Assembly (NCBI GenBank): GCA_965197525.1
Contig: OZ240211.1
Location: 448,001-512,000 of the forward strand
DNA: 64,000 bases
Direction: 5' to 3'
Source: Nitrosopumilus sp.
GTDB taxonomy: Archaea > Thermoproteota > Nitrososphaeria > Nitrososphaerales > Nitrosopumilaceae
The translations under genes and the position numbers were made by a program. This document shows positions 5,686 to 43,800 of the stretch, in pieces. The notes below the pieces were generated by a model. It had not been told where the DNA came from, ran no database searches, and saw only the letters and a list, made by a program, of their open reading frames with translations. Within the stretch, counting starts at the first letter, position 1. The number at the start of each line of letters is the position of its first letter.

Positions 5686-6402
5686 TTAACAAGTCAAGCC
5701 TCGACTAGTTAACATTGACATATCAACTATCCAGATTACCGGTCTGTAGGGTTCCGACATTGCTAACTCAAAAGTGTTAGTCTGCGCTTCACTTATGCCA
5801 CCTCTGCTATTCCTAAACCTAGGGGACAGCTTGCATGATATATTTATGGGAGCTACAACATCTCTATCCATCATAAATAATCCGCAATTATTGCACGACA
5901 TTTTACGTCTGTGTTGCATGTCCTCTTGGAGTTTCTTTCCGCATTGCAGACATTGTGTGCTCGTGTTTTTTGGGTCTACATATCTTACCGGCGGGAACCC
6001 GGCCCATTGGGCTTTGTATTCTATTTGGCGTTGTAACTCAAAGAATTGCCATCCGTTCATTCTACGTCTGTATTTGTTGCCTTGACCATTTTCTTTTTTG
6101 TAGAGTTTTCTTATTCCTTTTAGGTTTTCTAAAACGATGACAGTTTTTTCTTCGACGGTAGTATCCACAATATCATCTGTTATTTTGTGCAGATATTGTT
6201 TTGTTCTATTATTCATTCTTCTCTGTTTTTCTTTATAGAACTCACCTTTCTTTCTACGGTTATTTCTAGGGAATCCAGCTCTAGCATGTATTGTGTTCTC
6301 TGATAGATAACATCTTGTTTGTCTTGTAAAATGTCATTTTTATTTCATTTCCACAAGTTACATTTCTAAGGTTTCTGTCTATCCCTACTACATTGGTACA
6401 CT
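5686..6402 (-). pseudogene. tnpB: 5'-truncated, frameshifted tnpB (RNA-guided endonuclease) paralogous to 31409-32602
   Basis: ORF 5686-6216 has IVLENLKGIR, CLQCG...CNNCG and DRDVVAPINI. DNA homology to the intact copy extends to ~6402 (VGIDRNL region), with an indel near 6300; the N-terminal half is absent. Confidence 0.9.
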
Positions 6403-26991: not shown

Positions 26992-29900
26992 CTAACCAAC
27001 TATAGTATCAAGCACGAATACTAGTGCAATTTTAAATGTATCTATTGTAAGATCACCGCCGATTACAAGGACAGCCAAGTCAGTCATCACCCAATCCGGA
27101 ATATCAGCGCCTGGGTAGTCAAGGCCTATGGACTCTAGCAGTTCAGAGTCAGATATAGATTGCGGGTCAAATCCAGCCCACATTTTGATACTAAGGAGAA
27201 CGTCAGCATTATTATTATTATTATTATTAATATCAGATGTAGATTCCACATCTGGCGTTGCTGTTGTGATAAGTTCTGTCGTTGTTGTTGTTGTTGTTTC
27301 TTCTGCCAACTCTGACTGTTCTGGTGTCGATACTATGTTAAGAGCATCTAGTATCCGTATGTTAGTAGACCTAGAATTATCATTCCATATTCGTGCAACC
27401 AGATTGGTCAATCCCATCTCCCCATCAAACTCTATTACTGTAAGTATAGTATATTGGAAAGATTGTTCATCGTCTTGTTCTATAGTGACTGTGGCATCAG
27501 CAATGTAGTTATGTGGATCAACTACAGTAACACGACCATTCAAGTATGTAATGTACGTATCGCTTGAAGTATAAGAGGTATCATCACCATCCAAATTCAA
27601 AAACATGACAAAGTGGTCAATACCACTAGATGAATATGCTGTAAACGCAATGTTTGTAGACTGGTTCAAACCAATTTGGTATGGATGAATGGTGTTTATC
27701 TTTCCACCTAGTGCATAACAGGCGCCATCAGTCACAAATGGGAAACTAAATATAATTTCACCTTCCATAACTGATTCAATTGGTGTGGATGAATCATAGG
27801 ATTCAAGAATATCAAGAACGCTTTCTGGTATGTCGACATTAAACTGTGAATCCTGCAATGCATTTAGATCTACTATGGGGGGTGGTGTAGAACTACTAGA
27901 TTTCTTTTTGGCCACCGTGATGAATTTATCAGTAATTTCAGTGGTAATTCGGTTAGGTGTATCTGCAGTATCAGATATGGTGTTGGCTGCAATGAAGAGG
28001 CGAGGGTTGGATAATGTCTTGAATGTCTCTTTTTGCTCGTCAGTCAATGTGAGGGTTATAACTTGATTTTGTATGGTTAGTGTCGCATCGGTAAGAGTTA
28101 GACCGCCTGATGTTTCACCGTTTGATCTGATGGTAAAATCAAGTGGGTTTGCAATAGCATCATCAAGATCTTCATTAAATGTAATGACTAACGCACCGGT
28201 TTTAGGTGTGTATTTAGCTGATAGGAACTCTGGAAGCTGGGTATCAGTAACAGTGACATTCACGTCAAGTTCGGCATATAATCCAGTAGTAGGGCCAGTA
28301 CAAATAAAGGTTACCAGATAAGTACCTTCAGCTTGAATGTTGAAACCTTTGTGCGTAACTCGAATGTCAGTATCAAAGTCGTCACTGCATTCTACAACAT
28401 CTGATGGGGTAAAAATACCAGTTCGTTCCACAACAGGACTAGTGTCTATTACGGTTATGGCGGGTGGTTTTTCACCGACTATGACTGTCAGGGTTTGAGC
28501 GCCTGGGCCGTTATCGTCACGACAAGTAAAGGTTATTGTTTGTTGTGGTGTTTGAGATGCTGGAATGTTAACATCAATCATACCAACAGTACCGATGGGG
28601 GAGGTTAGAGTAGCACCACTATAGTCAACACATGTAACATCAGGCGGTGTAAAACGACCGGTGGAATCATATGGTACATGCAAAGGGTTGTCACCTGTTA
28701 TAATGACAGTGGGTGCATTTTCAGGCTGGTTGACACGTACTAGCAGAGTGTCAGTACCTGCTTGGCGTTTACTATCAGTACAGGTAAAAGTGACGTAAGT
28801 GTCACCAGGAGTACTAGTGTCAATAGAAATAGTGTCAGAGGTTGGAGTAATAGTGTCAGCATCATTATCACGACATGTAACAGCAGGTGCTGTATAACTA
28901 CCATTATAATCTACGAAAAGTGGGTTAGGACCAGGGATGTGTACATCAGGTGCAGGATCATCGAGTACTGTAATTACAGCAGTGCTGCTACCACTATGTG
29001 TACTGTTACTAACTTGAAGTGTTAACGTATAGCGGGTATTCTTATCAACTGCAGGGGCAATAAATGTAGGATTTTGAATACGGGCATCAGAGAAGACGTT
29101 TGCAGTATCAGGGTTAGAAGACCAGCTGTATGTCAAGGAACTATTATCACCGCCGCCGCTACTAGAACCAGTTAGTTCTATACTATCAAGTTCATACACA
29201 GAGTCATCAGAGGATATAGTGACAGTTAATGGAGGAGGGGGCAGAACACTGACTGTCAGAGTAGATGTACCTGTTTGGGGTTTACTATCAGTACAGGTAA
29301 AAGTGATACGAGTGTCACCAGGAGTACGAGTGTTAATAGAATCAGTGCTAGGGATTGGAATAATAGAGGCATTATCATTATCACTACAGGTAACAACAGG
29401 TGGTGTATAAACATCGCCATATTCTATGACAAGTGGATTAGGACCAGGGATATGTACAACAGGTGCAGGATCATCGAGTACTTGAATTCTGACAGTGGCA
29501 CTACCATGATGCGTATCGTCACCAATTTCAACTGTTAGCGTATAGTAGGTATCCCTATCAACTTCAGGAGCAGTAAATGTAGGATTTGGAATAGAGTTAT
29601 CAATGAAGGCACTTGTGGTATCAGGGCTAGAAGACCATCTGTATGTCAGAGAACTGCCATCACCGCCAGTATGAGAACTAGTTAGTGGTATAGTATCACC
29701 TTCAGTCACAGAGCTCTGAGAGGATGATGCAGTGACGGATAATGGAGCAGGAGCTAGAACACGGACTATCAGAGTAGCAGCACCTGCTTGGTTTTTACTA
29801 TCAGTACAGGTAAAAGTGACGCGAGTGTCACCAGGAGTACGAGTGTTAATAGAATCAATGTCAGGGATTGGACGAATAGGGCCATCATCATTATCACGAC

Positions 29901-30903
29901 ATGTAACAGCAGGTACTGTATAAACACCACCATATTCTATTTCAAGTGGATTAGGACTAGGGATAGTTACAACAGGTATAGGATCGCTGTGTACGGTAAT
30001 TGGGACAGTGACGCTATCCCTAAACGTCCCGTCATTGACTACAAGTGTTATGCTATAGGTGGTATCCCTATCAACTGGAGGAGCGGTAAACACGGTATGT
30101 TTAGTATTGTTAAAAGAAAAGACATCTGCAGTATCAGGGCGAGAAGACCAGCTGTATGTCAGAGAACTGCCATCACCGCCAGTATAAGAACTAGTTAGTG
30201 TTATAGTATCACCTTCAATCACAGTTCTGTTAGAGGGGGTTACAGAAATATCTAATGGAGAAGGAGGCGGAGGATTTCCAACGTTAACTGTTAGTGTTTT
30301 AGTGACATCAGGCCAAGGAGAATTCAAGCAAGTGTATGTGATTGTCTGTCTTGATACAGTTGTGGTATCAATTGTTGAAGTAGGTGCAATAAGAATAGGA
30401 TCAATAAAACCTACAGGTTTACATTCAGCAGAAGGTGCTTCAAACGTATCACCAGCAGATATGTTGCGAGGACTGTCACCTCCATCAATAGTAATGATAG
30501 GAGCAGGGGTCATATAAAAATAAAAGAAAGCATCATCATAGCCTGCATCATCAAATGCATACAAGGTATAAATTATATCATCAACAGAACCGGGAGGAAC
30601 TGTAAATCGCAAAGTACTCGTATCACTTGTGCCACTATCAGGGAGACTATGCACACCGCGAACCCAGGTGTAAGTAATATCACTACCAGTAATATTAGAT
30701 GTAACTACAGGAGAAATTACAACTTCTCCAACATCAGGATAGAAGAAAAAGGCATTAGATATATCATTAATCGATGGAATTGCAAATGCATGATTGATTA
30801 ACAATCCATCTCCATCTTCTCCCTCGGATCCTACATCCCATCCTCCTAAAGCTAGCGTTACTATCAATAACAAACTTAGAACTAGATATTTTGAGGAAGT
30901 CAT
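26992..30903 (-). CDS. Cell-surface Ig-repeat protein (1303 aa), tandem paralogue with three 171-aa PKD+DUF5011-like units
   Basis: Start re-called to ATG 30903 (MTSSKYLVLSLLL...). 513-bp periodicity (shadow ORFs at 28762, 29275, 29788). C-terminus IKMWAGFD...IPDWVMTDLAVLV is shared with the neighbour. Confidence 0.87.
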   Translation of the reverse strand: MTSSKYLVLSLLLIVTLALGGWDVGSEGEDGDGLLINHAFAIPSINDISNAFFFYPDVGEVVISPVVTSNITGSDITYTWVRGVHSLPDSGTSDTSTLRFTVPPGSVDDIIYTLYAFDDAGYDDAFFYFYMTPAPIITIDGGDSPRNISAGDTFEAPSAECKPVGFIDPILIAPTSTIDTTTVSRQTITYTCLNSPWPDVTKTLTVNVGNPPPPSPLDISVTPSNRTVIEGDTITLTSSYTGGDGSSLTYSWSSRPDTADVFSFNNTKHTVFTAPPVDRDTTYSITLVVNDGTFRDSVTVPITVHSDPIPVVTIPSPNPLEIEYGGVYTVPAVTCRDNDDGPIRPIPDIDSINTRTPGDTRVTFTCTDSKNQAGAATLIVRVLAPAPLSVTASSSQSSVTEGDTIPLTSSHTGGDGSSLTYRWSSSPDTTSAFIDNSIPNPTFTAPEVDRDTYYTLTVEIGDDTHHGSATVRIQVLDDPAPVVHIPGPNPLVIEYGDVYTPPVVTCSDNDNASIIPIPSTDSINTRTPGDTRITFTCTDSKPQTGTSTLTVSVLPPPPLTVTISSDDSVYELDSIELTGSSSGGGDNSSLTYSWSSNPDTANVFSDARIQNPTFIAPAVDKNTRYTLTLQVSNSTHSGSSTAVITVLDDPAPDVHIPGPNPLFVDYNGSYTAPAVTCRDNDADTITPTSDTISIDTSTPGDTYVTFTCTDSKRQAGTDTLLVRVNQPENAPTVIITGDNPLHVPYDSTGRFTPPDVTCVDYSGATLTSPIGTVGMIDVNIPASQTPQQTITFTCRDDNGPGAQTLTVIVGEKPPAITVIDTSPVVERTGIFTPSDVVECSDDFDTDIRVTHKGFNIQAEGTYLVTFICTGPTTGLYAELDVNVTVTDTQLPEFLSAKYTPKTGALVITFNEDLDDAIANPLDFTIRSNGETSGGLTLTDATLTIQNQVITLTLTDEQKETFKTLSNPRLFIAANTISDTADTPNRITTEITDKFITVAKKKSSSSTPPPIVDLNALQDSQFNVDIPESVLDILESYDSSTPIESVMEGEIIFSFPFVTDGACYALGGKINTIHPYQIGLNQSTNIAFTAYSSSGIDHFVMFLNLDGDDTSYTSSDTYITYLNGRVTVVDPHNYIADATVTIEQDDEQSFQYTILTVIEFDGEMGLTNLVARIWNDNSRSTNIRILDALNIVSTPEQSELAEETTTTTTTELITTATPDVESTSDINNNNNNNADVLLSIKMWAGFDPQSISDSELLESIGLDYPGADIPDWVMTDLAVLVIGGDLTIDTFKIALVFVLDTIVG

Positions 30904-31408
30904 ATTGATTATATGATATCCAATAGATATTGTGTAATAACGATCGGAATTGAATAAGATTGACAAATGTATCAAAAATAAAATAGGTTTACACACATAC
31001 ATATAAAATAAAAGGACAGTGATACCAGTATTACACACTTATTCTTGGTCTAAGATTTATCTAGTAAGCTTTTATAATTTATACGTTAGATCATATCAGC
31101 CCAACAGTATCTCCAAAGACTGATCTTACATACATCCTCCACATAAATACAAACATAGTATATGGCGAAACATCTGAACCATGTTCTCTGATCACATTTG
31201 ATCTGTGCACTTGTCGTATAGAACACCAAGACGTATAGAAGCGTTTATTCTGGTACATCATTAATCGGATCACACTAGTATATTCTAAGAATGTAAACAA
31301 GTTGAAAATATACTATTCCAAACATAGCAAAAGCTTATGCAAGCATCATCTAGTATGTACCCGTATCGTTCAAACGTTGTTGATAGGGTTCTGTGAAGTT
31401 ATCGAGGG

Positions 31409-32602
31409 TTAACCCCTATAACTCGACTTTGACATATCGACTATTCGGATTACCAATGGTGTGCCGGGTTCCGTCATCGCCTGCTCAAGAGTGCCGGACT
31501 GCGCTTCATATATGTCATCTCTACTACCCCTAAACCTAGGGGGCAGCTTGCGTGATATGTTCATGGCAGCGATAATATCCCTGTCCATAAACAAACCGCA
31601 ATTATTACACGACATTTTACGATGTTGTTGCATGTCCTCTTGGAGTCTCTTTCCGCATTGCAGACACTGCGTGCTCGTGTTTCTTGGGTCTACTGTCTCG
31701 ACTGGAGGCAGCCCTACCCATTGGGCTTTGTATTCTATTTGGCGTTGTAACTCGTAGAATTGCCACCCGTTCAATCTACGCCTGTACTTGTTACCTTGAC
31801 TGTTTCCTTTTCGGTACAATTTTCTTATTCCTTTCAGGTTTTCCATGACGATTGCAGTCTTGTTTTTGACTGCGTTGTCTACTATATCCTTTGAGATTCT
31901 GTGGATGTACTGCTTTGTTCTATTGCTCATTCGTCTCTGTCTTTGTTTCCAGAATTGACCTTTCTTTCTGCGATCATTTCTGTGGAATCCTGCCCTAGCG
32001 TGTATTGTGTTCTCCTTTATGGATAACAGTTTGTTTGTCTTGTAGACTGTCACCTCTTTCTCGTTCCCACACGTCACATTTCTTAGGTTTCTGTCTATTC
32101 CCACTTGATTGGTGCACTCTATCTCTTGTACTGTTTTTGAAACACAAAGACTGATGTTCAGAGCAGTCAATGAAAACGAGCGCACCGTCAAGGCGGGATC
32201 AGATAGGATTTTTTGGGTGTGATCGTTGAGTAAAATGTTGATTGGGTTATGTTTCTTGTATGAGATTGTTAATAGTGCACCGCTGTGTTGTATACCGTAA
32301 CAGTTTGTCATAAAGGGATTTTTGAGTATTGGGTCTCTTATTCTGACACCTCGTTTGATTGATTGTTTTCTGTTTGATAACATGCCTGCAGCTCGTGATA
32401 TTGCATTTAGTTTGTATGAAGACAGGATGTCATAATTACGTAATTCATGATAACATAACATGGACAACCTCTTCATATTGTGAGTGTCTTCTTTCAATCC
32501 TGTCTTGATGCAATGATTGACCATCTTTGTGAATATAGCCATCATATCCATTAGATCAGAGTTTGGCGTATATTTCTGTGATATTGACTTTATCGCTTTC
32601 AA
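31409..32602 (-). CDS. tnpB: TnpB RNA-guided endonuclease (397 aa), catalytic motifs intact
   Basis: RuvC-I VGIDRN, RuvC-II IVMENL, Zn finger CLQC...CNNC, RuvC-III DRDIIAAMNI; TTG start; stop lies inside the inner end of the TIR. Confidence 0.95.
   Translation of the reverse strand: MKAIKSISQKYTPNSDLMDMMAIFTKMVNHCIKTGLKEDTHNMKRLSMLCYHELRNYDILSSYKLNAISRAAGMLSNRKQSIKRGVRIRDPILKNPFMTNCYGIQHSGALLTISYKKHNPINILLNDHTQKILSDPALTVRSFSLTALNISLCVSKTVQEIECTNQVGIDRNLRNVTCGNEKEVTVYKTNKLLSIKENTIHARAGFHRNDRRKKGQFWKQRQRRMSNRTKQYIHRISKDIVDNAVKNKTAIVMENLKGIRKLYRKGNSQGNKYRRRLNGWQFYELQRQIEYKAQWVGLPPVETVDPRNTSTQCLQCGKRLQEDMQQHRKMSCNNCGLFMDRDIIAAMNISRKLPPRFRGSRDDIYEAQSGTLEQAMTEPGTPLVIRIVDMSKSSYRG
31412..31560 (-). 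ncRNA. Candidate omegaRNA/reRNA: scaffold ending ...GATATGTCAA (31429), then a 17-nt putative guide
   Basis: TnpB guide RNAs are known to overlap the 3' end of tnpB. Blocks cccctaggtttagg, tgaagcgcag, TTGA, cggaaccc and atagtYgatatgtcaa are conserved with the copy at 5715-5830, and similarity decays after TCAA. Boundaries are inferred. Confidence 0.5.
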
Positions 32603-32624
32603 CGAATATCTTACGGTTTAGAGG

Positions 32625-32636
32625 TTTATACAATTT
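32625..32636 (-). promoter_or_regulatory. Putative TATA box of tnpB (leaderless transcript)
   Basis: Minus-strand aaattgTATAAA, 23-28 nt upstream of the TTG start, the usual archaeal spacing. Confidence 0.5.
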
Positions 32637-32916
32637 AGGGATTAACAGATAACCCTCGATAACTTCACAGAACCGTTGATAGCAATACTCTAATGCGTGT
32701 CACAGCACTGCAGAATAATCGGATTCGACTAACTGTTTGACCTCTAAATCTCATTTTCGGTTCCTATCCAACAATGCAGTCATATAGATAATCATATTCT
32801 TTGGTGAGACATACGTAACATGCATACTTTGTATGCCCAATATGCTTGGACTATTTCTCCTAGAATCTATCTTCAGATAGAATAGTAATTAAACACTACA
32901 CATCGCCATATTTGTC

Positions 32917-34458
32917 TATAGCAACGTGCATAAGTTTCTGTACATGATGTTTTAGGACCATCAATAGGCATAATGCCTCATGTCTGTGGAATATGCCAAA
33001 AGCACAATGCAAAATGCAGGGAAAATTAAAATTCGAATTCATGTATGGCTATACATATCACATTGGAACAAAATGCAGGCGCCAAATGATACATACAGAA
33101 GATCAAACTACGTACAATCATTGCTTTTGTGCAGGTTTAGACGATACCTGGTGTGATACAATGTCGGGATTTGGCAGGCGGCGGCGATCCATCTTTATGA
33201 ATGGCCGCATGATTCCTTTGGGCGGTTTTCTTTTCCAGAACTTTTTAAAATTATAATCAAATTTGTGTATCCGTATAAACTCGTATACTGCTGCCAGATG
33301 TGAATTCTTATCTGCATAACGTATGGAATGATTCATTGCACGTTTGAGTACGCTCCATACTTCCTCTACGGGATTCAGATATGGATGTCCTACAGGATAC
33401 CACAGGACAATAATGTCGCGTTTTGCAAAGAATTCTTCTGCATCATGGGATGTATGCCACGGTGCCTTGTCTAGTATCAGGACCATCTTGCCCACCTCCC
33501 TGTACACCTTTTCCATATGTTCTAGAAAGGAGACGGTGTTGACAGTCTGACAGTGATTAAAAAACTGTCTGCCGTCGTGTGTCATGCTGCATATCATTGA
33601 GAATCTATGAAATCCTCCACTCCATAACATGAATATGCGTAGGCATGTTTTTGCCCAATATTTTGCAGACATTACAGCATCCTTGAAGTGTGATTCATCC
33701 TGGGTTACAATTGTATATCCCATCTTTGTGTACCTTGCAATCTTTTGATACAGGCTGTTCCTCCATTTGTTCACCTCTTCTATTGGTGCTCTATTAACCA
33801 TGACTGGCTGTGTCTTTTTTCTAGAGTATCCCCATTGTATGGTATATCGCCTTATCTGCGACATGTCAAGGCTTTGTCCGGACATCTCTTCTAGTTTGTC
33901 GTGCAGTTCTACTAGTGTAAATGCGCGTCCCTTGCACCAACGCCTTGCTTTCTCTAGAATTTTTCTGTCTATTTTTGGTGGACGTCCTGACCGTGGTTTG
34001 TCTGAGAGGGCCTGTCGTATTCCATGGAATGATTTTGTAGCACATGCAAACCTGCAATACCACAGGGCAACAGTACGACGATCACAATAAGATATTTTGG
34101 CAGTATTGGCAAATGTTTTGATTACCATAAATGCCAACAGCATGAATAACCGACGTGATATACGGCCTACATGTTCTACTTTTTACACTTGTTTTAGCAT
34201 TTTACGTTCGTGCATATGTACATTTAAAGAAACGCGTTTTTGACTTTTCCTATTGAGCTAGTAACCGTACGGTTAAATTTACGTTCGTGTGTAATGCTGA
34301 GCTAGTCCAAGTCTACAAATTTGTGTAAAAAAAAAATATGTTGTAGGTATACAGATGCTGTTCGGAATGCAGGAGGCGGTGATTTACACATGATGTGATG
34401 GTCAATGGACGACGATGTCCAGAAATTAGCTGTACAGAAACTTATGCATATTGCTATA
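32917..34458 (-). mobile_element. IS630-like family B shell (28-bp TIRs ending in TA), internally deleted, enclosing another IS630 transposase
   Basis: tatagcaacgtgcataagtttctgtaca (32917-32944) versus the reverse complement of 34431-34458: 26/28 identical. The minus strand ends NIMYRNLCTLL* inside the lower TIR. Confidence 0.7.
33118..34143 (-). CDS. IS630-family transposase
   Basis: HTH...DKPRSGRPPK, TQDESHF, LILDKAPWH, YLNPVEEVWSVLKR. An upstream in-frame ATG (34200) is followed by TAA (34183-34185), so the N-terminus may be broken. Confidence 0.9.
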   Translation of the reverse strand: MLLAFMVIKTFANTAKISYCDRRTVALWYCRFACATKSFHGIRQALSDKPRSGRPPKIDRKILEKARRWCKGRAFTLVELHDKLEEMSGQSLDMSQIRRYTIQWGYSRKKTQPVMVNRAPIEEVNKWRNSLYQKIARYTKMGYTIVTQDESHFKDAVMSAKYWAKTCLRIFMLWSGGFHRFSMICSMTHDGRQFFNHCQTVNTVSFLEHMEKVYREVGKMVLILDKAPWHTSHDAEEFFAKRDIIVLWYPVGHPYLNPVEEVWSVLKRAMNHSIRYADKNSHLAAVYEFIRIHKFDYNFKKFWKRKPPKGIMRPFIKMDRRRLPNPDIVSHQVSSKPAQKQ

Positions 34459-34462
34459 TGTG

Positions 34463-34825
34463 CAAGCTGCTTTGGGAAAATACTGTTTTTGATATCTACA
34501 AAAAATTCTGTAATCTTATGATTTACTATTTTTGTCGGGCGTCCGGATCTTGATTTTTCATACAATCCCGCAACTCCAAATTCTTTAAATCGCATAACCC
34601 AATTTTTAACTGTGTTGTAAGATTTGTAAAACATATGTGTGATTGTTGAAATCGTTTCACCTTCCTCTACGACATTTAACACTGCAAGCATCCGTTCTTT
34701 TGCTTTTGAGTTTAATTCCTTCTTGTATACATATATTAATTCCATATTCTGGTTTTCCACGATAGGCGATAAATGTTTCAAGCTATAAATGTTTCTAGTG
34801 TTTTTGAAAATTGCAAAGACTTTTT
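34463..34825 (-). mobile_element. 5' fragment of IS630 family A (left TIR plus HTH region)
   Basis: Homologous to 51292-51680 in inverted orientation; TIR aattgcaaagactt at 34809-34822; truncated at a TA against the family B end. Confidence 0.85.
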
Positions 34826-34850: not shown

Positions 34851-37800
34851 TCAATTCGTGGTGCGGACGGTGTAAGTATGATCAGCATCAGTAGGTGCAG
34901 TGTTTGTAAGAGGATTATTTGCTGCGTCTACAATACCGTGCCCTGACGATATCAGATCAAGGTTGTATGTGCCGTCTTGAGTTGCAGAGACTGTCACGTA
35001 ATACGTATTGCCAGAACCTGAGATCGATGTTACAGGGTTTGACGTATCGCTGCTGCTGCTGCTGCTACCAGGATTGATCGTAAGCGTCCAGCTGTTCAGG
35101 GTACCGTCATCGGCAGCTGCAAAGTTGTCGTTTATCTGTAGCGTCCAGGTACCTGCAATGGAGACACCTGCAAAGTTTGGTGTGTATGTCTGGTCTATGT
35201 CATTGGCGCTGCCTCCAGAGCGGTTGTGGAGGGTCCTAGTTGCACCATCAGGTGCAACAAGATCTATCTTGAGGTCGCCTATGTACGTGTGGGAGACGTC
35301 TATTGCAACTGAGACTGACGTAACAGTACCAGAGTCTGGGACTGTGATGGTATCTGTTATGGTGTTGGCGGCAGTTATGGCAATGGCAGGAGAACGTGTC
35401 TGTGTGAACTGACCGGAATCTGCGCCAGAACCGGTTCCGCCCGTGCTGTCAGAAGACAGGGTAAAGTCAGTCTTGTTCACTCCGGTTACATCCTCACTAA
35501 AGGTCACCTCGTAGACTAGTGTCTGGCTGTCAGTAGGTGCAGCAGCAGGATTGGATCTCTCAATTGATGTGAGTGTTGGTGCTGTGGTATCAGCAGGTAC
35601 TGTGTTGACCGTGTAGGTGTGGTCTGCTCCGGTGGTGGCAGTATCAGTTAGAGGATTGTCTGCCAAATCCTTGATGCCGTGGTTTTGTACAAGATCAAGG
35701 TTGTATGTGCCGTCCTGTGTGACAGAGACTGCCACGTAATACGTATTGCCAGAACCTGAGACCGATGTTACAGGGGTTGATGTACCACTACTACTACCAG
35801 GATTGATCGTAAGCGTCCAGCTGTTCAGGGTACCGTCATCTTCAGCTGCAAAGTTGTCGTTTATCTGTAGCGTCCAGATACCTGCAATTGGAATACCTGC
35901 AAAGTCTGGTGTGTATGTCTGGTCTATGTCATCGGCGCTGCCTCCAGAGCGGTTGTGGACGGTCTTGATTGTTCCATCAGGTGCAATAAGATCGACCTTG
36001 AGGTCGCCTTTGTACGTGTGAGAGACGTCCACGGCGACAGAGACTGACGTAACAGTACCAGAGCCGGTAACTGTGATGGTATCTGTTATGGTGTTAGCTG
36101 CAGTTATGGCAATGGCAGGAGAACGTGTCTGTGTGAACTGGGCAGAGCTTGATCCGCCCGTGCTATCAGAAGACAGGGCAAAGTCAGTCTTGTCCACTCC
36201 GGTTACATCCTCGCTAAAGGTCACCTTGTAGGTCAGCGTCTGGCTGTCGGTGCTTTCTGCAACGGGACTGTACCGCTCAATTGATGATAGTGTTGGCGCA
36301 GTGGTGTCATCAGGTACGGTATTGACGGTATACGTCTCGTCAGTACCTGTAGTTGGAGTCACGTCTGTTAGTGGATTGCTTGATTTATCAGTTATATCGT
36401 GCCCTGACGATATCAGATCAAGGTTGTATGTGCCGTCCTGTGTGGCCAAAACCGTCACTTGGTACGTGTCGCCAGAACCTGAGATCGATGTTACAGGGTT
36501 TGATGTATCACTGCTGCTACTACCAAGATTGATCGTAAGCGTCCAGCTGTTTAGGGTACCGTCGTCTGCGGTGGCATAGTTGTCGTTTATCCTTAAAGTC
36601 CAGATACCTGCAATTGGAATACCTGCAAAGTCTGGTGTGTATGTCTGGTCTATGTCATCGGCGCTGCCTCCAGAGCGGTTGTGGACGGTCTTGATTGTTC
36701 CATCAGGTGCAATAAGATCGACCTTGAGGTCGCCTTTGTACGTGTGAGAGACATCCACGGCGACAGAGACTGACGTAACAGTACCAGAGCCGGTAACTGT
36801 GATGGTATCTGTTATGGTGTTGGCTGCAGTTATGGCAATGGCAGGAGAACGTGTCTGTGTGAACTGGGCAGAGCTTGATCCGCCCGTGCTATCAGAAGAC
36901 AGGGCAAAGTCAGTCTTGTCCACTCCGGTTACATCCTCGCTAAAGGTCACCTTGTAGGTCAGCGTCTGGCTGTCGGTGCTTTCTGCAACGGGACTGTACC
37001 GCTCAATTGATGATAGTGTTGGCGCAGTGGTGTCATCAGGTACGGTATTGACGGTATACGTCTCGTCAGTACCTGTAGTTGGAGTCACGTCTGTTAGTGG
37101 ATTGCTTGATTTATCAGTTATATCGTGCCCTGACGATATCAGATCAAGGTTGTATGTGCCGTCCTGTGTGGCCAAAACCGTCACTTGGTACGTGTCGCCA
37201 GAACCTGAGATCGATGTTACAGGGTTTGATGTATCACTGCTGCTACTACCAAGATTGATCGTAAGCGTCCAGCTGTTCAGGGTACCGTCGTCTGCGGTGG
37301 CATAGTTGTCGTTTATCCTTAAAGTCCAGATACCTGCAATTGGAATACCTGCAAAGTCTGGTGTGTATGTCTGGTCTATGTCATCGGCGCTGCCTCCAGA
37401 GCGGTTGTGGACGGTCTTGATTGTTCCATCAGGTGCAATAAGATCGACCTTGAGGTCGCCTTTGTACGTGTGAGAGACATCCACGGCGACAGAGACTGAC
37501 GTAACAGTACCAGAGCCGGTAACTGTGATGGTATCTGTTATGGTGTTGGCTGCAGTTATGGCAATGGCAGGAGAACGTGTCTGTGTGAACTGGGCAGAGC
37601 TTGATCCGCCCGTGCTATCAGAAGACAGGGCAAAGTCAGTCTTGTCCACTCCGGTTACATCCTCGCTAAAGGTCACCTCGTAGACTAGTGTCTGGCTGTC
37701 AGTAGTTGCAGCAACAGGATTGTATCTCTCAATTGATGTGAGTGTTGGTGCAGTGGTGTCATCAGGTACGGTATTGACGGTATACGTCTCGTCAGTACCT

Positions 37801-40800
37801 GTAGTTGGAGTCACGTCTGTTAGTGGATTGCTTGATTTATCAGTTATATCGTGCCCTGACGATATCAGATCAAGGTTGTATGTGCCGTCCTGTGTGGCCA
37901 AAACCGTCACTTGGTACGTGTCGCCAGAACCTGAGATCGATGTTACAGGGTTTGATGTATCACTGCTGCTGCTACCAGGATTGATCGTAAGCGTCCAGCT
38001 GTTCAGGGTACCGTCGTCTGCGGTGGCATAGTTGTCGTTTATCCTTAAAGTCCAGATACCTGCAATTGGAATACCTGCAAAGTCTGGTGTGTATGTCTGG
38101 TCTATGTCATCGGCGCTGCCCCCAGAGCGGTTGTGGACGGTCTTGATTGTTCCATCAGGTGCAATAAGATCAACCTTGAGGTCGCCTTTGTACGTGTGAG
38201 AGACATCCACGGCGACAGAGACTGACGTAACAGTACCAGAGCCGGTAACTGTGATGGTATCTGTTATGGTGTTGGCTGCAGTTATGGCAATGGCAGGAGA
38301 ACGTGTCTGTGTGAACTGGGCAGAGCTTGATCCGCCCGTGCTATCAGAAGACAGGGCAAAGTCAGTCTTGTCCACTCCGGTTACATCCTCGCTAAAGGTC
38401 ACCTCGTAGACTAGTGTCTGGCTGTCAGTAGTTGCAGCAACAGGATTGTATCTCTCAATTGATGTGAGTGTTGGTGCAGTGGTGTCATCAGGTACGGTAT
38501 TGACGGTATACGTCTCGTCAGTACCTGTAGTTGGAGTCACGTCTGTTAGTGGATTGCTTGATTTATCAGTTATATCGTGCCCTGACGATATCAGATCAAG
38601 GTTGTATGTGCCGTCCTGTGTGGCCAAAACCGTCACTTGGTACGTGTCGCCAGAACCTGAGATCGATGTTACAGGGTTTGATGTATCACTGCTGCTGCTA
38701 CCAGGATTGATCGTAAGCGTCCAGCTGTTCAGGGTACCGTCGTCTGCGGTGGCATAGTTGTCGTTTATCCTTAAAGTCCAGATACCTGCAATTGGAATAC
38801 CTGCAAAGTCTGGTGTGTATGTCTGGTCTATGTCATCGGCGCTGCCTCCAGAGCGGTTGTGGACGGTCTTGATTGTTCCATCAGGTGCAATAAGATCAAC
38901 CTTGAGGTCGCCTTTGTACGTGTGAGAGACGTCCACGGCGACAGAGACTGACGTAACAGTACCAGAGCCGGTAACTGTGATGGTATCTGTTATGGTGTTG
39001 GCTGCAGTTATGGCAATGGCAGGAGAACGTGTCTGTGTGAACTGGGCAGAGCTTGATCCGCCCGTGCTATCAGAAGACAGGGCAAAGTCAGTCTTGTCCA
39101 CTCCGGTTACATCCTCGCTAAAGGTCACCTCGTAGACTAGTGTCTGGCTGTCAGTAGTTGCAGCAACAGGATTGTATCTCTCAATTGATGTGAGTGTTGG
39201 TGCTGTGGTATCAGCAGGTACTGTGTTGACCGTGTAGGTGTGGTCTACTCCGGTGGTGGCAGTATCAGTTAGAGGATTGTCTGCCGAATCCTCGATGCCG
39301 TGGTTTTGTACAAGATCAAGGTTGTATGTGCCGTCACTTGATGCAGAGACTGTCACAAAGTACTGGCTGCCAGAACCGGATATGGAGGTTACAGGATTGG
39401 GGACATCGGGGGTATCACCATAATTAATTGTGAGTGTCCAGCTGTTCAGAACGCCGTCATCTGCAGATGGATAGTCGTCGTTGATCTGTAGCGTCCATGT
39501 TCCTGATATTGAGGCGCCGTTAAAGTTCGGTGTGTATGTAGCTATGATATCGTCTGAACTACCGCCTGAACGATTGTGTAACGTTTTGGTTGTACCGTCG
39601 GGGGCAACCAAATCTACCTTTAGATCACTAATGTATGTATGAGTAATGTTTAGGTCAACTGAAACTGATGCAGCATTTCCAGAATTAGACACTGATATGG
39701 TATCAACAACGTCTTGATCACCTGCTATGGCAGTTGATGGTGAGTTGGTCTGAGTGAACTGGCCAGTACCAGTACCTGGGTCGGGACCGCCCGTGCTATC
39801 AGAAGACAGAACAAAGTCAGACTGTGTCACGCCGGTCACTGCTTCGCTAAAGGTTACCTCGTAGACTAGTGTCTGGCTGTCAGTAGTTGCAGCAACAGGA
39901 TTGTATCTCTCAATTGATGTGAGTGTTGGTGCTGTGGTATCAGCAGGTACTGTGTTGACCGTGTAGGTGTGGTCTACTCCGGTGGTGGCAGTATCAGTTA
40001 GAGGATTGTCTGCCGAATCCTCGATGCCGTGGTTTTGTACAAGATCAAGGTTGTATGTGCCGTCACTTGATGCAGAGACTGTCACAAAGTACTGGCTGCC
40101 AGAACCGGATATGGAGGTTACAGGATTGGGGACATCGGGGGTATCACCATAATTAATTGTGAGTGTCCAGCTGTTCAGAACGCCGTCATCTGCAGATGGA
40201 TAGTCGTCGTTGATCTGTAGCGTCCATGTTCCTGATATTGAGGCGCCGTTAAAGTTCGGTGTGTATGTAGCTATGATATCGTCTGAACTACCGCCTGAAC
40301 GATTGTGTAACGTTTTGGTTGTACCGTCGGGGGCAACCAAATCTACCTTTAGATCACTAATGTATGTATGAGTAATGTTTAGGTCAACTGAAACTGATGC
40401 AGCATTTCCAGAATTAGACACTGATATGGTATCAACAACGTCTTGATCACCTGCTATGGCAGTTGATGGTGAGTTGGTCTGAGTGAACTGGCCAGTACCA
40501 GTACCTGGGTCGGGACCGCCCGTGCTATCAGAAGACAGAACAAAGTCAGACTGTGTCACGCCGGTCACTGCTTCGCTAAAGGTTACCTCGTAGACTAGTG
40601 TCTGGCTGTCAGTAGTTGCAGCAACAGGATTGTATCTCTCAATTGATGTGAGTGTTGGTGCTGTGGTATCAGCAGGTACTGTGTTGACCGTGTAGGTGTG
40701 GTCTACTCCGGTGGTGGCAGTATCAGTTAGAGGATTGTCTGCCGAATCCTCGATGCCGTGGTTTTGTACAAGATCAAGGTTGTATGTGCCGTCACTTGAT

Positions 40801-43800
40801 GCAGAGACTGTCACAAAGTACTGGCTGCCAGAACCGGATATGGAGGTTACAGGATTGGGGACATCGGGGGTATCACCATAATTAATTGTGAGTGTCCAGC
40901 TGTTCAGAACGCCGTCATCTGCAGATGGATAGTCGTCGTTGATCTGTAGCGTCCATGTTCCTGATATTGAGGCGCCGTTAAAGTTCGGTGTGTATGTAGC
41001 TATGATATCGTCTGAACTACCGCCTGAACGATTGTGTAACGTTTTGGTTGTACCGTCGGGGGCAACCAAATCTACCTTTAGATCACTAATGTATGTATGA
41101 GTAATGTTTAGGTCAACTGAAACTGATGCAGCATTTCCAGAATTAGACACTGATATGGTATCAACAACGTCTTGATCACCTGCTATGGCAGTTGATGGTG
41201 AGTTGGTCTGAGTGAACTGGCCAGTACCAGTACCTGGGTCGGGACCGCCCGTGCTATCAGAAGACAGAACAAAGTCAGACTGTGTCACACCGGTCACTGC
41301 TTCGCTAAAGGTTACCTCGTAGACTAGTGTCTGGCTGTCAGTAGTTGCAGCAACAGGATTGTATCTCTCAATTGATGTGAGTGTTGGTGCTGTGGTATCA
41401 GCAGGTACTGTGTTGACCGTGTAGGTGTGGTCTACTCCGGTGGTGGCAGTATCAGTTAGAGGATTGTCTGCCGAATCCTCGATGCCGTGGTTTTGTACAA
41501 GATCAAGGTTGTATGTGCCGTCACTTGATGCAGAGACTGTTACAAAGTACTGGCTGCCAGAACCGGATATGGAAGTTATAGCATTAGCGGCAGTACCCGT
41601 ACTAGCGGAAGACAGAACAAAGTCAGACTGTGTCACGCCGGTTACATCTTCGCTAAAGGTTACCTCGTAGACTAGTGTCTGGGCGTCAGTAGTTGCGGCA
41701 GCAGGATTGTATCTCTCAATTGATGTGAGTGTTGGTGCAGTGGTATCAGCAGGTACCGTGTTGACCGTGTAGGTGTGGTCTACTCCGGTGGTGGCAGTAT
41801 CAGTTAGAGGGTTATCTGCCAAATCCTCGATGCCGTGGTTTTGTACAAGATCAAGGTTGTATGTGCCGTCCTGTGTGGCCAAAACCGTCACTTGGTACGT
41901 GTCGCCAGAACCTGAGATCGATGTTACAGGGTTTGATGTACCACTACTACTACTACTGCCACTATCAGGATTGATCGTAAGCGTCCAGCTGTTCAGGGTA
42001 CCGTCGTCGGCGGTGGCATAGTTGTCGTTTATCTGTAGCGTCCAGATACCTGCAATTGAAACACCGGCAAAGTCGGGTGTGTATGTCTGGTCTATGTCAT
42101 CGGCGCTGCCTCCAGAGCGGTTGTGGACGGTCTTGATGGTTCCATCAGGTGCAATAAGATCTATCTTGAGGTCGCCTTTGTACGTGTGAGAGACGTCCAC
42201 GGCGACAGAGACTGACGTAACAGTACCGGAATCGGTAACTGTGATGGTATCTGTTATGGTGTTGGCTGCAGTTATGGCAATGGCAGGAGAACGTGTCTGT
42301 GTGAACTGGGCAGAGCTTGATCCGCCCGTGCTATCAGAAGACAGGGCAAAGTCAGTCTTGTCCACTCCGGTTACATCCTCGCTGAAGATCACCTTGTAGG
42401 TCAGCGTCTGGCTGTCGGTGTTTTCTGTAGCTGGATTGTACCGCTCAATTGATGATAGTGTTGGTGCAGTGGTGTCAGCAGGTACCGTGTTGACAGTATA
42501 TGTCTGGTCTACTCCGGTGGTGGCAGTATCAGTTAGAGGGTTATCTGCCAAATCCTCGATGCCGTGGTTTTGTACAAGATCAAGGTTGTATGTGCCGTCA
42601 CTTGACGCAGAGACCGTTACAAAGTACTGGCTGCCAGAACCGGATATGGAGGTTACAGAATTAGCGGCAGTACCCGTGCTATCAGAAGACAGAACAAAGT
42701 CAGACTGTGTCACACCGGTTACATCCTCGCTAAAGGTTACCTTGTAGATTAGCGTCTGGTTGTCGGTGTTCTGGTCTGTGGGACTGTATCTTTCAATTGA
42801 CGTGACCGTCGGGGCAATCGTGTCAACAGTGTAGGTGTGGTCGGTTCCAGTTGTTGGGGCGGTGTCAACCAGAGGGTTGCTTGATTCGTCTGTGATGCCG
42901 TGCCCCGATGACACCAGATCAAGGTTGTAGGTGCCGTCCTGCGTCGCAGAGACTGTCACGTTGTATATATAGCCGGAGCCTGTCAGACCTGTTATGCTGC
43001 CTGCCCCTGTACTTCCAGGGGACAGGGCAAAGTCGGCTGAATGCACGCCAGTCACATTCTCGCTGAAAGTCACTCGGTAGATTAGCGTCTGACTAGAAGT
43101 TGTTGTACCTGACGGGCTGAACCGCTCTATCGACGAGATCGTGGGGGCGGTGGTGTCTGCAGGAATGGTGCTGACCGTGTAGGTGTGGTCGACCCCGGTG
43201 GAGGTGGTGTCAACCAGAGGGTTGCTTGATTCGTCTGTGATGCCGTGCCCCGATGACACCAGATCAAGGTTGTAGGTGCCGTCCTGCGTCGCAGAGACTG
43301 TCACGTTGTATATATAGCCGGAGCCTGTCAGACCTGTTATGCTGCCTGCCCCGGTACTTCCAGGGGACAGGGCAAAGTCGGCTGAATGCACGCCAGTCAC
43401 ATTCTCGCTGAAAGTCACTCGGTAGATTAGCGTCTGACTAGAAGTTGTTGTACCTGACGGGCTGAACCGCTCTATCGACGAGATCGTGGGGGCGGTGGTG
43501 TCTGCAGGAATGGTGCTGACCGTGTAGGTGTGGTCGACCCCGGTGGAGGTGGTGTCAACCAGAGGGTTGCTTGATTCGTCTGTGATGCCGTGCCCCGATG
43601 ACACCAGATCAAGGTTGTAGGTGCCGTCCTGCGTCGCAGAGACTGTCACGTTGTATATATAGCCGGAGCCTGTCAGACCTGTTATGCTGCCTGCCCCGGT
43701 ACTTCCAGGGGACAGGGCAAAGTCGGCTGAATGCACGCCAGTCACATTCTCGCTGAAAGTCACTCGGTAGATTAGCGTCTGACTAGAAGTTGTTGTACCT

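Follow-up and report, generated by a model that had tools for sequence, protein, structure and literature searches.

A TnpB gene carried by a transposase-less element with IS6-like ends in Nitrosopumilus, and a flanking motif that accompanies it

The window analysed here is a stretch of 64,000 nucleotides (nt) from a Nitrosopumilus sp. genome (contig OZ240211.1, positions 448,001 to 512,000), and coordinates given without a genome prefix are positions in it. The source genome (G000) is a single contig of 2.21 Mb. The window contains a transposon unit of 1,288 bp, the sole long open reading frame (ORF) of which is tnpB, the gene of an RNA-guided nuclease. The unit has perfect terminal inverted repeats (TIRs) and an 8-bp target-site duplication (TSD), and has recently multiplied in the genome, with different TSDs at the copies. 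It encodes no transposase; transposases in units with matching ends are found elsewhere in the same genome. The 3' end of tnpB coincides with a structured RNA region, and a short motif, TTR (R being A or G), is found on one side of the insertions and goes with the tnpB cargo. The unit is probably a transposase-less member of an IS6-like DDE transposon lineage, having as its only cargo an OMEGA module (the name stands for obligate mobile element-guided activity) made up of tnpB and omega-RNA. It would be mobilised in trans, take its guide from the flanking DNA and recognise TTR as its target-adjacent motif (TAM).

The unit and its immediate surroundings are composed as follows.

31379-31386, no strand: copy of the TSD at the right end (in the tnpB orientation), GTTGATAG, identical to 32675-32682
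31387-31411, minus strand: right-end TIR, 25 bp, perfect complement of 32650-32674, holding the tnpB stop codon
31409-32602, minus strand: tnpB, 397 amino acids (aa), TTG start, RuvC D-E-D triad and zinc finger intact according to family models and motifs
31410-31564, minus strand: core (conserved, four helices) of the putative omega-RNA scaffold, overlapping the tnpB 3' end, from covariation alignment A1
32603-32649, minus strand: left-end untranslated region, 47 nt, between the TIR and the tnpB start, from reading of the sequence
32625-32630, minus strand: TATA-like TATAAA about 23 nt upstream of the tnpB start, possibly a promoter element
32650-32674, minus strand: left-end TIR, 25 bp, perfect complement of 31387-31411
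32675-32682, no strand: copy of the TSD at the left end, GTTGATAG
32683-32685, minus strand: candidate TAM, TTG (which reads CAA on the plus strand), abutting the left-end TSD on its 5' side, from the enrichment of TTR over 40 units

The perfect 25-bp TIRs and the exact 8-bp duplication that the first-pass annotation had described are both present. The TIR arms are 100% complementary over their 25 nt. The TAA stop codon of tnpB (31409-31411) forms the innermost 3 nt of the right TIR and lies 22 nt from the element end, and the start codon is separated from the other TIR by 47 nt, again as annotated. Elsewhere in the window the TIR 25-mer is not matched, and 100 shuffles did not give a match either. 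That the combination of TIR and TSD is not due to chance is shown by the genome, where units with these 1,288-bp boundaries were found 16 times, 12 of them with a perfect 8-bp TSD that is distinct for that copy.

Cas12 and the eukaryotic Fanzors are descended from TnpB. The 397-aa ORF matches the Pfam family Cas12f1-like_TNB with E=7e-20 (71.4 bits, the cut-off being 26.3) and the NCBIfam family guided_TnpB with 122.7 bits (cut-off 100). Its matches in the PDB are TnpB and Cas12f and extend across the RuvC and zinc-finger part. The annotation had described a tnpB with three RuvC acidic motifs and a zinc finger that fills the unit, and on this the motifs agree with the models. The motifs are GIDRN (D170), MENL (E254), C313/C316 with C332/C335, and DRDIIAAMN (D340/D342), and they are invariant among the relatives in a second alignment, A2. 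The catalytic glutamate E254 lies 59 residues before finger residue C313, which is the canonical prokaryotic arrangement. Nearly all full-length tnpB frames in the genome are open, and the ratio of nonsynonymous to synonymous polymorphism (pN/pS) among the copies of the window's family, family A, is 0.38. Judged by this ratio, tnpB is under purifying selection.

The 16 family-A copies are 94-100% identical and have identical boundaries. Twelve of them have a perfect 8-bp TSD, each different from the others. A tblastn search of the genome found 47 tnpB loci, about 34 of them full length, belonging to at least eight subfamilies; about 18 full-length copies fall into the seven subfamilies besides family A. 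The TIRs of all subfamilies start with GGTTCTGT (GGTTCTG...) and diverge further inward. Genome-wide, perfect 8-bp TSDs, all different, flank 24 of the 40 units with defined ends. The contigs of three public DNA runs stop exactly at the element ends and run on into many different flanks. The TnpB clade extends over 8 families of the order and was found in 57 of 301 sampled genomes.

In about ten miniatures of 358-655 bp, both TIRs are present and tnpB is reduced to its last 90-130 codons, with the 3' guide-RNA region. Miniatures with the same deletion occur at different sites with their own TSDs, and must thus have transposed as miniatures. Because they hold the 3' end of tnpB, they derive from a tnpB element and not from an empty host MITE (miniature inverted-repeat transposable element).

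Many TIR-bounded tnpB copies with distinct TSDs were found, which the first-pass annotation had proposed to look for. The annotation had set its reading against a genome in which no other TIR-bounded tnpB existed and in which MITEs with the same TIRs lacked tnpB; what is found is many copies, and MITEs that are deletions of the tnpB element. There is hardly any room left, therefore, for the idea that an ordinary tnpB element of the IS1341 type was inserted a single time into a MITE already present. Such an event does not account for 16 copies with the same boundaries and different TSDs or for seven further subfamilies of the same design. It is at odds with the stop codon lying inside the TIR and with MITEs that contain the tnpB 3' end. 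Nothing in its favour was found, and it was rejected on account of the copies with distinct TSDs and the tnpB-derived MITEs.

Copies without a TSD can be explained by recombination between copies. In the Nitrosopumilus metagenome-assembled genome (MAG) OZ245003.1 two copies, L079 and L082, lie about 126 kb apart in inverted orientation and have reciprocally swapped halves of their 8-bp TSDs, TAGAAACT and TTATGTTA. By its sequence, this swap is the signature of a chromosomal inversion through recombination between the copies. Among the 16 units of the source genome that lack a perfect TSD, no reciprocal TSD halves were found. No joint of 31386 to 32683, such as an empty allele would give, was seen over positions 30900-33150 in contigs from one RNA and three DNA runs. 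The sole contig joint near the ends runs from 31406 to 32655, with a 20-nt side, and lies inside the TIRs.

A few loci fall outside this pattern. A truncated tnpB remnant of a related subfamily (5698-6402, minus strand) covers residues ~163-397 with 73% identity and has no recognisable TIRs. At G000:C1:1780232-1781416 there is a full-length open tnpB, 86% identical to that of the window, with no GGTTCTG-type ends on either side. Two units, G000:C1:883991-884841 (851 bp) and 1385894-1386101 (208 bp), have GGTTCTGT TIRs and perfect 8-bp TSDs and were absent from the set of loci related to tnpB. They may be MITEs of IS6-like type that lack the omega-RNA region, and would then provide additional controls for the flank motif.

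No transposase was found inside the tnpB unit in any of the approximately 120 tnpB loci examined. Nor did these loci include an autonomous unit combining an IS6 transposase with tnpB, the only trace of one being a 47-aa transposase fragment 2 kb from the tnpB of one locus (L091). The source genome has eight matches to the Pfam domain DDE_Tnp_IS240 (PF13610), which is the domain of the IS6 family, and seven of the eight are above the cut-off. Four of these genes lie within units bounded by GGTTCTGT TIRs. The first, IS6a, is 1,970 bp long, has perfect 25-bp TIRs and the TSD CTATTGTG, and contains one ORF of 378 aa. The second is 4,126 bp long and has a TSD. The third, L033 (G000:C1:699962-703151), is an IS6-like unit of 3,190 bp with perfect 25-bp TIRs and no TSD, encoding a 383-aa transposase and having as passengers a DNA methyltransferase-like gene of 333 aa and an ORF of 142 aa. 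The fourth is 5,146 bp long. Intact transposases of this type occur in 123 of the 301 sampled genomes of the order. As an observation in itself, L033 is an IS6-like element with passenger genes, a kind that the IS6 reviews call very rare.

The partner transposases have an N-terminal SWIM zinc finger, and PF13610 is above its cut-off in all three proteins tested. NCBIfam ranks IS6 first for the partner transposase, with E=2e-29 and positions 1-199 of the 202-position profile covered. The tnpB subfamilies F and H have 19 of the 20 outer TIR bases in common with the IS6a/T7 transposase elements. Since the tnpB units lack a transposase and the partner units encode one, the tnpB unit is a non-autonomous derivative and not IS6 proper. 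The annotated non-autonomous, DDE-mobilised archaeal TnpB transposon with IS6-like ends is thus supported by the copies, their TSDs and the partner transposases. Of the mobilisers that the annotation had listed, IS6 is upheld by the Pfam and NCBIfam results, and IS1, IS1595 and ISL3 are not, as no Pfam domain of these families matches the partner transposases. It is very improbable that one of these three, which also have GG ends and TSDs of about 8 bp, mobilises the units while the likeness to IS6 is coincidental. A partner transposase does give a weaker NCBIfam match to IS1 (1.4e-16) and an IS1/IS1595-type zinc-binding match. However, the transposases in units with GGTTCTGT ends all belong to PF13610, and the TIR identity of 19/20 with subfamilies F and H speaks directly for the IS6-like elements.

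The insertions have a distinct signature on one side. When the 40 units are oriented by tnpB, the 3 nt directly 5' of the upstream TSD occupy positions -11 to -9 from the left end. T is present at -11 in 29 of the 40 units and at -10 in 38, and A or G is present at -9 in 39. The complete TTR motif is found in 27/40 units, compared with a genome background of 4.4% (binomial p=1e-27); at the mirror position past the downstream TSD it is found in 6/40. The signature recurs in other Nitrosopumilus and Thaumarchaeota MAGs, where TTR precedes 8 of 11 units and T-10/R-9 all 11. It recurs also in TSD-validated metagenome units with TnpB identities of 40-64%, the ends of which were delimited by a tolerant TIR search (TTR in 10/12, T-10/R-9 in 12/12), and the order-wide units have T-10/R-9 in 8 of 8.

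As a control, the same positions were read in eight transposase-only IS6-like units of the order with perfect TSDs, and TTR was found on 1 of their 16 flanks. Pooled, 33/42 tnpB units have TTR compared with 1/9 transposase-only units (Fisher p=2.8e-4), and there is none at the four transposase units of the source genome. By this control, the motif accompanies the cargo of TnpB and omega-RNA rather than IS6-like transposition itself. A random insertion would land beside TTR with a chance of about 4% per orientation, so that the enrichment implies either strong retention or drive of such insertions, or an influence of TnpB on the choice of target.

The same architecture could also exist with a one-sided TTR that is not the TAM of TnpB but reflects a target preference of the transposase or a need for expression from the flank. 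Target preferences are common among DDE transposases, the upstream flank is A/T-rich also at -20 to -15, and IS6 elements form hybrid promoters with flanking DNA (PMC7986276). In addition, the transposase-only control amounts to no more than 8-9 units, of which two are orthologous, and was drawn from other TIR subfamilies. Against this, the motif keeps strictly to one side of units whose TIRs are perfect inverted repeats, and 15 of the 16 flanks of transposase-only units lack it. The motif stands exactly where a 5' TAM would be expected if the guide starts at the element end, and it is kept across TnpBs of only 40% identity and across different TIR subfamilies. This explanation of the motif is accordingly judged unlikely, though it keeps some weight.

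The guide-RNA side of the unit can be recognised by its conservation. In all subfamilies and in the miniatures, the last 155-240 nt contain a common invariant core with compensatory substitutions. Alignment A1 comprises 20 non-identical sequences, in which RNAalifold finds four helices with 35 pairs and 98.3% of the cells paired. Eight pairs (34 cells) are changed on both sides, and none of 500 shuffles reaches these values. In controls with slid partners the pairing falls to 25-41%. No Rfam family matches the region.

Between the core and the right TIR there is a linker of 0-90 nt that varies in length and sequence among the subfamilies. By eye in the alignment, it appears to pair with the inner half of the TIR of its own subfamily, so that the TIR seems to serve also as the scaffold's 3' part. 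Of 35 metagenome copies in which no left end can be recognised, 29 still have the right terminus ending in ...ACAGAACC. Such retention after the decay of the left end is expected if the scaffold runs to the element end.

It might be argued instead that the scaffold ends at the core (...GUCAAAGUC) and that the guide is captive, consisting of the linker and TIR, or that there is no guide from the flank at all, the nuclease then having a fixed target or a role other than homing. The invariant core does stop short of the element end, by 38 nt in family A and by as much as about 110 nt in others, and the linker that follows is variable. However, the linkers of the subfamilies have no sequence in common and so present no coherent fixed target, and they appear instead to pair with their own TIR, in its inner half. 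A fixed internal guide also gives no reason for a conserved motif beyond the TSD. The right terminus retained by copies with a decayed left end is what a scaffold running to the element end would lead one to expect. A captive guide is therefore considered quite improbable.

The contig cover from a sponge metatranscriptome is skewed to 31384-31740 and absent over 32116-32571, more strongly so than in the DNA runs. These data give neither strand nor ends, and DNA carry-over is possible; the skew is a weak hint of omega-RNA expression. A separate observation concerns many diverged copies from metagenomes and from across the order (L102-L180 and L212-L240), in which the ...ACAGAACC right end follows tnpB after 3-116 nt and no left TIR can be recognised. 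The terminus on the guide-RNA side seems to outlast mobility, and it may mark TnpB loci that have been immobilised or domesticated.

Taken as an IS6-like transposon with an OMEGA cargo, the unit can be given the following mode of action. The IS6-like transposases would bind the TIRs in trans and make 8-bp staggered cuts in the target. Transcription would run from the left end through tnpB and out via the right end, giving an omega-RNA with a terminal guide derived from the TSD on the right and the flank beyond it. The TSD would then supply the first 8 nt of the guide, which in the window copy would continue past the TSD into about 31367-31378. TnpB would recognise 5'-TTR as its TAM. Assuming that this is so, an unoccupied allele, consisting of 5'-TTR, the 8-bp target and the same flank, would present a TAM and a protospacer for the guide of that very copy. 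TnpB could thus cut empty alleles on sister chromosomes, in recombinants or in the products of precise excision, and repair from the occupied copy would reinstate the element. Retention or drive would be limited to insertions that by chance have TTR on the side of the left end, which would explain why the motif is one-sided. It is proposed tentatively that TTR is the TAM of TnpB and couples the nuclease to the DDE transposase, either as a gene-drive filter, homing by TnpB deciding which insertions of a probably copy-in element persist and the variable 8-bp TSD acting as guide seed, or through a TAM-bound TnpB that steers the left end to a site 8 bp from the TAM; the balance of probability lies somewhat against this coupling.

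Several observations weigh against the proposed identity and mode of action of the unit, besides the small size and different TIR subfamilies of the transposase-only control. The partner transposase scores 102.8 bits, below the NCBIfam IS6 equivalog cut-off of 125, and for this reason the label "IS6-like" is used here. Archaeal "IS6" elements are regarded as no more than remote relatives of IS26 (PMC6807381). For the window's family A, no element with a transposase and the exact TIR was found, the best match being 16/20. Bacterial IS6 elements form cointegrates by a copy-in route without excision (PMC7986276), and the archaeal members have never been tested (PMC6807381). If transposition is copy-in without excision, the usual rationale of restorative homing (PMC13565253) does not apply. 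The TAM, the guide and cleavage by TnpB are predictions, for which the one-sided TTR is an indirect signature.

The first-pass annotation had regarded TIR-borne RNA-guided nucleases as mainly a matter of eukaryotic Fanzors. This is not so: DDE-associated branches of prokaryotic TnpB have been known since 2023 (PMC10691335), and the general kind of element, a TnpB within a DDE transposon with TIRs, has been established since then. The main text of that study, by Altae-Tran et al., describes six such branches with inverted terminal repeats, DDE-1 to DDE-6, as well as solo TnpBs with ends that match those of transposase-bearing elements (PMC10691335). The unit in the window resembles the branches in having TnpB between the inverted repeats of a DDE transposon and the 3' end of tnpB near one end, at 22 nt where the branches were delimited by less than 250 bp. 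It resembles the solo TnpBs in that its ends are like those of transposase-bearing elements, implying mobilisation in trans. The partner differs: those named are IS630 (PMC10691335) and ISL2, IS630 and IS1031 (PMC13565253), in the parts of these papers covered, and the partner here is IS6-like. The window's clade may nevertheless be one of DDE-1 to DDE-6, the comparison having been made with the main text.

Several properties are shared with the IS6/IS26 family. These are the 8-bp TSDs (PMC7986276), found here in 24/40 units, and short perfect TIRs in which bases 1, 2 and 7 are G (PMC6807381), as in all subfamilies here. The partner transposases have DDE_Tnp_IS240, the domain of this family, some members of which also have an N-terminal zinc finger (PMC7986276, PMC6807381). 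Unlike IS6 proper, the window unit has tnpB in place of a transposase; the partner elements measure at least 1.97 kb, and their transposases of 378-383 aa fall below the NCBIfam IS6 cut-off. For the family as a whole, the two IS6 reviews record a single passenger gene and two MITEs (PMC7986276, PMC6807381). The passenger-gene section of the 2021 review names a hypothetical protein only (PMC7986276), and Harmer and Hall (2019) make no mention of TnpB or OrfB (PMC6807381). The archaeal clades in the covered sections of both reviews do not include Thaumarchaeota (PMC7986276, PMC6807381).

In its contents the unit is like the IS1341-type (tnpB-only IS200/IS605) elements, in which tnpB is the single gene and overlaps the omega-RNA at its 3' end, the element is non-autonomous, and the TnpB has the "typical" DRDxN RuvC-III motif. 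IS200/IS605 elements, unlike the present unit with its perfect TIRs and 8-bp TSDs, have neither TIRs nor a TSD and use subterminal hairpins and a Y1 TnpA (PMC13565253). The likeness to Fanzors in eukaryotic TIR transposons consists in a TnpB-type nuclease within a transposon with TIRs and a TSD and in a scaffold that overlaps the TIR (PMC10530073). In Fanzors, however, the 5' TSD is within the TAM and the 3' TSD in the scaffold (PMC13565253), whereas here the TSD is variable, the motif is outside it, and the TSD is the proposed start of the guide. Fanzors belong, moreover, to eukaryotes and giant viruses and have the RuvC-II glutamate about 6 residues before the finger (PMC13565253), compared with 59 residues in this archaeal protein. 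Mobile insertion cassettes, MITEs and omega-RNA-bearing derivatives similar to PATEs (palindrome-associated transposable elements) are also free of a transposase, bounded by insertion-sequence ends and moved in trans, and the miniatures here likewise keep the ends and the RNA region. The tnpB unit differs from these in that its cargo is an RNA-guided nuclease module and its ends are IS6-like.

No publication joining TnpB with Nitrosopumilus was found, and the titles and abstracts of the literature that names both TnpB and IS6 do not describe their pairing. An IS6-like partner, an exclusively non-autonomous lifestyle, guide-RNA-only miniatures within the lineage and a TAM outside the TSD were likewise not found in the literature searched, which did not extend to the supplements of PMC10691335. 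The new contribution is the transposase-only control together with the replication of TTR in three sets of independent data.

A review of 2026 explains the scarcity of prokaryotic DDE-OMEGA elements by an inflexible recognition of the TAM (PMC13565253). With this family it becomes testable how nucleases of this kind live alongside DDE transposons, whose TSDs vary and which may not excise. In the layout offered in answer, the TAM would lie just outside the TSD, the guide would start with the TSD, and the TIR would also form the 3' portion of the guide-RNA scaffold. The family provides dozens of natural insertion sites, and the transposase-only relatives and guide-RNA-only miniatures are built-in controls. 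The IS6-like lineage would be extended to ammonia-oxidising archaea with a type of cargo unrecorded for that family, and the family supplies compact archaeal TnpBs (397 aa) with a predicted short TAM. The elements shape Nitrosopumilus genomes, with about 47 loci in 2.2 Mb here and the apparent inversion between copies in the related MAG.

The surroundings of the unit contain further mobile and repetitive genes. An IS630-like transposase of 341 aa (DDE_3 with HTH_32/HTH_33) lies at 33118-34143 on the minus strand, 440 bp from the tnpB unit. It belongs to another DDE family, and no link to the tnpB unit was seen. Beside it, at 34302-34781 on the minus strand, there is an HTH-only fragment of 159 aa from a similar gene. 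The transposon cluster is flanked by two giant repetitive ORFs of 1,348 aa (26992-31038, minus strand) and 2,970 aa (34851-43763, minus strand), both of which contain many near-identical tandem domain repeats and resemble proteins of the surface or adhesin type.

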